Shown: one piece after another, positions 32,402-33,049 of the stretch
Layout of the letters: each line of letters opens with the position of its first letter
How positions within the stretch are numbered: position 1 is the first letter of the stretch
IMG/VR virus record: IMGVR_UViG_3300042350_003801
Reading direction: 5' to 3' (one strand)
Source: a virus
Lineage: Duplodnaviria > Caudoviricetes
DNA: 64,000 nt
Position numbers and translations under genes: made by a program
Notes under the pieces: model-generated
Seen by the model: only the letters and a program-made list of their open reading frames with translations
Databases searched by the model: none
What the model was told of the DNA's origin: nothing

Positions 32402-33049
32402 TTAACCCAAATTTTCTGGCAGAACTACACGACGAATAGTTTCACCGGGGCGAGCTTCTGCATCGTCAGGAAAAATAAAAGATCCAATGAGAAATGCTGT
32501 AGAGCCGGACTCAACATTATCAAAGTTGTGACCATATTCGGTAAACAATTCCTTAAGGGTCTTGCCATCATATTGCATACCGTTTAGTTTTAGTTCTTGG
32601 TCATTTGCCTTAAGGGTAACGGGTTCCCAGGATAGGCGAGGGTCATCATTATAAGAACCAATGTAGTTATTAAACATAACATTGTTATTCTCGTGTCTAC
32701 ACAGTCGGTATTCAACAGCTTTAATCTCTTTTAGTTCTTTCCAAAAATCATCAGGAAGATTTTTAAGAAATTCTTTATTCAGTTCAATATCTTCTCTACA
32801 GAAAGGACCATAACCTTCAAACAATTTCCCGGTTTTTAAATACTCATCAATGTGTGGAATAAGTTCACCTGGGTATTTTTTGCGGTCAATAAAATAAAAG
32901 CACCAGTATTCATCAAATGAGTCCAACTCCAATTCATACTTATCGCAAAACGGATAGACTACATCTTCTGCATACTTTTTTGCCAGGTCTGTTATATTAT
33001 TCAATGCCGTGTCAAAAAGTTCTTCATAGTTGACAGCCGAAGTGGTCAT
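32402..33049 (-). CDS. cargo domain fused to C-terminal Ubl ending in Gly
   Basis: C-terminal ~75 aa aligns with the 31397 Ubl; N-terminus paralogous to the 17853 gene. Confidence 0.8.
   Translation of the reverse strand: MTTSAVNYEELFDTALNNITDLAKKYAEDVVYPFCDKYELELDSFDEYWCFYFIDRKKYPGELIPHIDEYLKTGKLFEGYGPFCREDIELNKEFLKNLPDDFWKELKEIKAVEYRLCRHENNNVMFNNYIGSYNDDPRLSWEPVTLKANDQELKLNGMQYDGKTLKELFTEYGHNFDNVESGSTAFLIGSFIFPDDAEARPGETIRRVVLPENLG

Follow-up and report, generated by a model that had tools for sequence, protein, structure and literature searches.

Why would a phage that encodes a free ubiquitin-like protein (Ubl), together with E1, E2 and JAB proteins of its own, carry beside them a second Ubl that is fused behind another domain? 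This question is raised by a 215-aa protein encoded at positions 32402–33049 (− strand) of the window, that is, the whole 64,000-nt stretch of DNA analysed here, which comes from a virus of the Caudoviricetes (IMG/VR record IMGVR_UViG_3300042350_003801). A first, sequence-only reading regarded the protein as pre-processed for conjugation, with its stop codon falling right after the Gly of the mature Ubl terminus, and proposed that its N-terminal domain is a payload delivered covalently to targets by the neighbouring enzymes in a modular effector-ligation system. The fusion is genuine and conserved, and belongs as an unexplained accessory to a viral ubiquitin-like system not described before; the claim of modular effector ligation should be scaled back.

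The Ubl-JAB-E2-E1 cassette and its setting

The fusion gene lies upstream of a cassette of five conserved genes, all of them on the − strand. The first encodes the free Ubl (31397–31666), an 89-aa protein whose end, ...VIKAEGKGAA, corresponds to a precursor form (EGKG-AA). It is followed by a terminator-like hairpin of 15 pairs (31341–31373, −) and by a JAB/JAMM peptidase of 370 aa (30208–31320) in which E137, H154-S-H156, S164 and D167 are invariant. Next is an E2-like protein of 303 aa (29211–30122), which gives a weak match to Prok-E2_D and has an invariant N157, an invariant I-C165-W and, in its N-terminal half, an invariant cluster of four Cys (C66, C69, C77 and C91) that is likely a zinc site. 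The E1 (28433–29137) is a minimal ThiF protein of 234 aa (ThiF match, E 2.7e-11) with a single adenylation domain, in which GxGGxGG, R51-Q52, D108-N-D110 and C182 are invariant. Finally, the fifth gene encodes a helical protein (27951–28424). This gene order is conserved in about 20 distinct viral or metagenomic loci, which were collected with an E1 profile.

The catalytic signatures of E1 and E2 are invariant across 15–18 sequences, and that of the JAB peptidase is likewise invariant in the family. The free Ubls always contain "KG", after which come nothing, A, AA, LI, LV, LG, VY or NN, that is, 0–2 residues; the ubl genes of three related loci (L004, L009 and L011) end KG-stop. This is the BilA pattern, in which a JAB peptidase takes off the overhang to expose the Gly (10.1101/2023.09.26.559546). 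Thus, from the invariant signatures and the pattern of overhangs, it can be soundly inferred that the free Ubl is the modifier of a functional conjugation pathway. Neither the E2-like protein nor the JAB peptidase has a sequence relative in the PDB, where the E1 matches just the ATP loop of Uba1 (E ~4e-3), and megablast of the cassette region found no close GenBank phage.

The window itself is phage-like: nearly all of its genes are on one strand, and it encodes a tail-collar fibre and two IS605-type TnpB proteins (33814–35010, +; 54836–56014). The 215-aa fusion protein is also found on a contig of 250 kb. No tRNA genes were found within the window; a set of translation and RNA-repair genes of jumbo-phage type lies on the − strand at 45523–47016, 49689–50498, 37917–39404 and 19310–20086, and includes a class II (D/K/N) aminoacyl-tRNA synthetase, a class IIb synthetase core, an RNA ligase and a CCA/polyA polymerase head domain. 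Paralogs that share 'NPxxFLGPNYxxVxNFW...' ends flank the cassette (26219–26689, 27153–27596, 35092–35538, 33143–33511 and 36771–37127, −), and some of these have AAR(N/D)AA-type repeat cores with opposite frames that are open too.

Several related loci show rearrangements of their own. For instance, an IS605-type tnpB and a resolvase are present at L004:4825–6499, so that tnpB insertions adjoining the cassette are seen in two phage lineages. Inserts of ~1.2 kb lie inside the cassette in L030 and L013, and the JAB gene of L011 is split into two ORFs (7650–8075 and 8316–8897). In L008, the E1 C-terminus (...RNMKTSVS) is present a second time, as a 42-aa duplicate (11693–11821) ~1 kb past the intact E1 and before the helical gene, an arrangement that suggests an insertion with target duplication.

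Anatomy of the fusion protein and its gene

The fusion protein (P0001) is made up of an N-domain (residues 1–135; 32645–33049, −), a Ubl domain (residues 144–209; 32423–32620, −) and a flexible tail of six residues, LPENLG (residues 210–215), which together with the stop codon occupies 32402–32422 (−). As had been proposed, the C-terminal part aligns with the free Ubl: by BLASTP, residues 144–215 are identical to residues 16–87 of the free Ubl at 30 of 72 positions (42%), without gaps and with an E of 1e-16. In this alignment G215 pairs with G87, and in an alignment of 24 sequences the last Gly of the fusion occupies the column of the invariant "KG" of 12 free Ubls. The protein ends ...RRVVLPENLG and a TAA follows at once, so the position of the stop immediately after the equivalent of the mature Ubl end is also borne out. 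In an AlphaFold2 model made from a 24-sequence alignment (pLDDT 82.6 for the whole protein), the N-terminal part has a helix (8–38), a hairpin (40–53) and further helices to ~128, followed by a low-confidence linker; the C-terminal part is a β-grasp (144–209; β1-β2-helix-β3-β4-β5) with a low-confidence six-residue tail. In Foldseek, the Ubl domain best matches SUMO/ubiquitin-like domains of the PDB, with prob 1.0 and a TM to target of ~0.6; the SUMO-like-domain entries 3rcz, 3a4s and 3goe are among the hits. Against orthologs, which are 54–79% identical, dN/dS is 0.15–0.38 in both domains, and the fusion is therefore a real gene.

From this anatomy, the fusion of the window's subclade may be read as a second, pre-processed modifier. 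E1 would adenylate Gly215, E2 would take over the activated protein, and all 215 aa would be ligated to targets, with the N-domain carried along as a payload, whether bulky or functional; relatives that lack the Gly would then be derived, non-conjugating forms. A stop placed exactly after a Gly that is homologous to the processing and activation Gly of the free Ubls argues for such a role, as do the flexible tail on the β-grasp, the family-wide invariance of the catalytic residues of E1, E2 and JAB, and the retention of an R-P-G-E...R motif before and in β5. Precedents are also available, namely the Bil and Bub Ubls that carry N-terminal domains (PMC11601603) and the conjugation of a CD-NTase by Cap2 (PMC10097602). 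Nevertheless, conjugation of the fusion deserves serious consideration rather than belief, its probability being well short of even.

One reason is that the fused Ubl has diverged from a primary modifier. A β-grasp fold, a nearby E1 with adenylation motifs and a Cys, and a nearby E2 with a Cys, as expected for a conjugatable Ubl, are all present. By contrast, clade A fusions keep just 15 of the 38 near-invariant positions of free Ubls, namely those of the fold core and of the R-P-G-E...R motif. Replacements affect the N-terminal leader, R54, G67, Gly79 of β5 and the Lys at −1, and in the case of Gly79 and the Lys, which is invariant in free Ubls, they are seen in all fusions. In the Ubl tree the branches of fused Ubls are long (0.56–1.48) and those of free Ubls short. 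The loss of Lys(−1) counts less against conjugation if this residue serves JAB processing alone, as a protein that ends in Gly has no need of being processed.

The N-domain had been described as a paralog of the standalone gene at 17853–18245 (−; P0003, 130 aa), and this relationship is well founded. BLASTP aligns residues 9–74 of the fusion with its product at 34% identity over 68 aa (E 1e-8), and a profile-profile comparison of eight fusion N-domains with eight standalone proteins in hhalign gives a probability of 99.4% (E 3e-21, 101 columns). Standalone homologs of 130–154 aa are also present on related metagenomic contigs, and F34, C35, Y38, F102 and I109 are the invariant residues of the N-domain. 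When it is modelled alone with AlphaFold2 (pLDDT 85.9, pTM 0.80), the domain shows a long helix, a β-hairpin and helices. The fold is an orphan: no family match was found in Pfam, PHROGs, PADLOC or NCBIfam, Foldseek gave nothing in the PDB except at E>1, the best Z among 48,161 chains was 4.3 in VIA-align, which is noise for a helical protein, and in the ESM Atlas matches had TM<0.45 and a feature search gave no usable one. A protein of 1996 aa (P0010) that matches helix 1 with an E of 1.5e-8 is a repeat protein, and was set aside as spurious.

Of the structure predictions that had been called for, that of the Ubl domain gave the expected β-grasp and that of the N-domain an orphan fold. The words payload and effector have no fold or family match behind them, and the family libraries and fold searches found no enzyme or toxin signature in the N-domain. 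The idea of modular, variable cargo fares no better: one N-domain family is present in every Ubl fusion near the ~20 related cassettes, and HMM scans of all ORFs from 56 sources (the window and L001–L055, E up to 10) found no other N-terminal domain fused to a Ubl. A single type of N-domain, devoid of an effector signature, also weakens the view that the fusion is conjugated as a payload. The sole other Ubl architecture is a tandem di-Ubl in L016 (7318–7833, +), where the cassette is distant (E1 29% identical) and the di-Ubl gene is upstream of a 229-aa ORF, JAB and E1. Its first unit ends ...VKEAGTKG and its second ...VKEAGSKG-C, and it may be either polyubiquitin-like or ISG15-like.

The fusion gene is preceded by a promoter-like element, TTGATG-16-TATAAT (33107–33080), and this in turn by the motif CAACTGTCTAC (33125–33115), so that the signals span 33080–33125 (−). 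The consensus CAACTGTCYAC has three sites in 64 kb versus 0.06 expected, once before the fusion (33115–33125, −) and twice before ubl (31765–31775 and 31867–31877, −). The two further copies, CAACTGTCCAC, are in two repeated elements of ~100 bp upstream of ubl (31765–31877, −). It is also found before the fusion in two related loci (L001 and L004) and before ubl in three (L004, L007 and L030). Because a version that is one base shorter (10 nt) occurs at a few other genes (25793, 37908 and 44218), this is probably a promoter-class element and not one specific to the cassette. Ten base pairs past the fusion stop starts ORF136 (31981–32391, −), whose function is unassigned and whose homologs are absent from related loci; it is probably co-transcribed with the fusion.

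Tails, selection and linkage in the fusion family

Among 1.84 billion cluster representatives, searched exhaustively, there were only two fusion clusters (P0001 and P0009), in addition to free Ubls and standalone N-domains. Through searches of 90% clusters and cluster listings, the family was divided into a window-like subclade A1 (P0001, P0027–29 and P0004–7), a subclade A2 that is ~56% identical to A1 (P0008, P0031, P0032, P0018, P0030 and P0033) and a clade B that is ~37% identical (P0009, P0023, P0034, P0035 and others). The Ubl tree neither shows nor excludes a single origin of both fusion clades.

A terminal Gly that fails to be conserved among homologous fusions had been put forward as refuting the covalent reading. 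This is what the family as a whole shows, though not A1, where all eight distinct sequences end [L/Q]-G-stop. In total, 11 of 17 full-length fusion proteins have this end, all of A1 included, and three A2 sequences end in LG. Another A2 protein, that of L030 (P0018), ends in LE through a single GGA>GAA change within a stretch that is otherwise ~97% identical. Two further A2 proteins (P0030/P0033; in L057/L058 and L059) end ...CIIE after a 15-bp in-frame deletion that took out SPCLG, and this deletion is found on two diverged backgrounds (dS 0.02 for L059 versus L056, and 0.18 for L057 versus L056). An artefact of contig edges was considered for these tail-less proteins and rejected, as they have real TAA stops and conserved downstream sequence in three assemblies. 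Clade B, known from more than 13 contigs, ends ...IIARTPE or ...TPA, with no Gly and three residues short of the A1 end. Thus, the terminal Gly has been lost at least twice outside the window's subclade, and the rest of the gene has been retained. At the same time, L-G-stop has been kept between subclades although all four preceding tail residues differ, and this gives a hint that the end is constrained to some degree.

The selection seen in the Gly-less forms bears directly on the covalent reading. Both domains of A1 and A2 proteins are under purifying selection, within the range given above. In clade B, the Ubl domain has a dN/dS of 0.15 (9 synonymous and 6 nonsynonymous changes) and the N-domain one of 0.52; the Ubl domain is therefore maintained for something other than canonical C-terminal activation. 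Because relatives without the Gly end are still maintained, covalent delivery of a cargo is unproven. It is, on the other hand, improbable that the Ubl domain is a decaying relic behind an N-domain that works as its standalone paralogs do, with the proximity of the cassette simply marking the site of duplication. The existence of a standalone N-domain family is consistent with a relic, and so are the higher conservation of the N-domain (67%) than of the Ubl domain (41%) between the window and L030, the erosion of the tail in several lineages, and the raised dN/dS of the L057 Ubl domain (0.5–1.1, on small counts). Against it, the dN/dS of the Ubl domain is 0.15–0.38 in most comparisons, in clade B it is below that of the N-domain, no fusion has lost the β-grasp, and the linkage to ubl has persisted through four rearrangements and through what appears to be a transfer from one phage lineage to another.

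This linkage supports the tie to the neighbouring enzymes that the sequence-only reading had drawn. Wherever the DNA suffices, the distance between the fusion and ubl is 0–2.2 kb, and the fusion takes one of four positions: directly upstream of ubl (L004); 1.7–2.1 kb upstream with other genes between (L001 and L003); upstream with ORF136 between (the window); or between ubl and JAB (L030 and L057). A homolog of ClpS, the N-degron adaptor (PF02617), is found 0.5–0.8 kb upstream of the fusion in three loci (L001:970–1263, L002:216–509 and L003:7250–7543), adjoining LRV-repeat proteins; none was seen at the equivalent position of the window, where tnpB is inserted nearby.

Linkage to ubl does not mean that the fusion and the enzymes have travelled together. 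Between the window and L001, the fusion is 77% identical (the Ubl domain 84%), E1 59%, E2 37%, JAB 52% and the free Ubl 53%; between L001 and L030 the order is the opposite, with 57% for the fusion and 71% for E1. Because the identities of the fusion and of the cassette enzymes are decoupled in this way, the comparison indicates that the fusion gene has been exchanged between phage lineages, each time beside ubl. Moreover, five loci that extend 6–7 kb upstream of the cassette and 10 kb past it lack the fusion, and in a complete 284-kb phage relative that has the cassette the sole match to the fusion is the free Ubl. Since this complete relative has the cassette without it, the fusion is an accessory that is dispensable for the cassette.

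The account favoured here, with a probability that comes close to even, is that the fusion is a Ubl-domain accessory which docks non-covalently on the cassette enzymes. A duplicated ubl gene would have been fused behind a phage-specific N-domain gene, and the role of the Ubl domain that is selected across the family would be a non-covalent one. The domain would dock on an enzyme that normally binds the free Ubl, be it E1, E2 or JAB, and in this way would tether the N-domain and its binding partner to these enzymes; the fusion would serve as an adaptor for substrates, or else regulate the free Ubl or compete with it. Docking accounts for the Gly-less forms that are under selection, the altered surface and tail, the decoupling from E1 and E2, and the dispensability of the fusion. 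Several of the same facts are awkward for conjugation: the Gly was lost from genes that were nevertheless kept under selection, the passage of the fusion between phages is independent of E1 and E2, and a complete relative has the cassette alone. In addition, A1 may simply have inherited its Gly end from a parental ubl gene with a KG-stop end, like that of the three ubl genes mentioned above.

Docking does not explain everything with equal ease. The exact Gly end of the eight A1 and three A2 sequences and its survival across differing tails speak against it, and the tail-less alleles may be loss-of-function variants that are drifting, as the dN/dS of the L057 Ubl domain would allow. Nevertheless, docking and conjugation are not mutually exclusive, since an ancestral conjugatable form could have acquired a docking role or always had one. 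In the window's subclade, the free Gly on its flexible tail might thus permit activation and conjugation as a lineage-specific or ancestral extra, and not as the core function. It is conceivable, if rather doubtful, that in the window's lineage the phage E1 and E2 link the orphan domain, a folded unit of 135 aa, covalently to proteins of the host or of the phage. The Ubl handle would then need no JAB maturation and, without Lys-Gly, might resist removal by JAB, and the Gly>Glu and tail-deletion alleles would be switched-off versions. There is little likelihood, finally, that the fusion is instead a protein to which the free Ubl is preferentially attached, as substrate or acceptor, or that it primes chain formation, with a Ubl domain that recruits it to E2. 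The linkage and the Ubl-type domain would suit this role, and Bil enzymes conjugate Ubl to Ubl too (10.1101/2023.09.26.559546), but nothing specific points to it.

Known systems and the place of the fusion

Among the described systems, the closest architectures are those of Type II Bil and Bub operons, where an N-terminal domain precedes a single β-grasp, as in CC-Ubl1, N/G-tail-Ubl1 and (tandem) DUF1508-Ubl1 (PMC11601603, Gong et al. 2024). As in the phage, a non-Ubl domain is followed by one β-grasp that ends at the activation Gly, beside E1, E2 and JAB. Their Ubl is, however, the only one of the operon, whereas the phage fusion coexists with a free Ubl paralog and is dispensable. Its N-domain is an orphan with no relation to theirs, and several lineages have lost the Gly. 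The enzymes differ as well: the E1 of Bil has an inactive and an active adenylation domain with an inserted CYS domain (10.1101/2023.09.26.559546), in contrast to the 234 aa and single adenylation domain of the phage E1. Of the Bil models in PADLOC, only BilD matches the cassette (E 0.0058 over ~90 residues), with none for Ubl, E2 or JAB.

In Type II CBASS, Cap2 (E2-E1) conjugates the C-terminus of the CD-NTase, with Cap3 as the JAB peptidase (PMC10097602; 10.1101/2022.03.31.486616). This resembles the concept first proposed for the phage protein, as E1/E2 chemistry there links a folded cargo to targets by the C-terminal Gly/Ala of the cargo itself. The CD-NTase, however, has no β-grasp, and the phage E1 and E2 are separate small proteins; the E1-E2 models of PADLOC match the cassette only over the ATP-binding part (E ~1e-6), and there is no CD-NTase or nucleotidyltransferase in the cassette. 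Sulfur-carrier systems, too, have C-terminal Ubls that follow another domain, alongside a further, free Ubl of the same operon: ThiS or MoaD is fused to enzyme C-termini, and ThiS-ThiF operons have a second, solo ThiS (Iyer, Burroughs & Aravind 2006, PMC1779556). Such systems have no E2, unlike the phage cassette with its JAB and its E2-like protein with an invariant Cys.

The best curated match of the E1 is the PRTRC ThiF (NCBIfam TIGR03736), with an E of 7e-13 over nearly the full length and 48.5 bits versus a cutoff of 144.75; PRTRC protein A (TIGR03735) scores 22.3 bits versus a cutoff of 101.8, and the matches of JAB (Prok-JAB) and E2 (Prok-E2_D) are weak. PRTRC systems of plasmids and ICEs likewise combine a small E1, JAB, an E2-like protein and a small Ubl on a mobile element. 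Nevertheless, the scores are far under the family cutoffs and no N-domain-Ubl fusion has been described there; no characterisation of PRTRC was found in the literature.

For a docking role, the analogy is eukaryotic. The SUMO-like domains of Rad60 and NIP45 have no di-Gly and bind the E2 Ubc9 non-covalently. In Rad60, Esc2 and NIP45, as in the phage fusion, a modifier paralog is placed at the C-terminus of a larger protein and does not need a conjugatable di-Gly. These proteins have no sequence relation to the fusion, whose binding to E2 would be by analogy, and the window's copy does end in Gly; a selected β-grasp paralog without a conjugatable end is found in clade B and thus at the level of the family, not specifically in the window's copy.

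A literature search, which was not exhaustive, found no paper describing a phage-encoded Ubl-JAB-E2-E1 cassette. An N-domain followed by a Ubl is already known from bacterial Bil and Bub systems, and an enzyme-Ubl with a second, solo Ubl from sulfur-carrier operons. What is new is the viral setting, the free and fused paralogs on one enzyme set, the orphan N-domain family and the natural series of tail states.

Bacterial Ubl conjugation systems such as Bil, Bub and CBASS Cap2 have recently been shown to be anti-phage defences, and the uncultured jumbo phages considered here, a family from freshwater, have a divergent Ubl-JAB-E2-E1 set of their own. The fusion is the component that could reveal the target of this phage system, with the N-domain either as a target-binding adaptor or as a conjugated payload, and its natural mutants (Gly, Glu, tail-less and the truncated clade) should be informative in telling the conjugated from the docking model. 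If non-covalent docking is true, the fusion would be a prokaryotic-virus counterpart of the eukaryotic SUMO-like-domain proteins. If conjugation is true, the Bil/Bub architectures of N-domain and Ubl would be extended to a viral system with two modifiers. Covalent attachment in the window's lineage would then amount to a virus-encoded protein-to-protein ligation, in which two modifiers of different size are served by one enzyme set.
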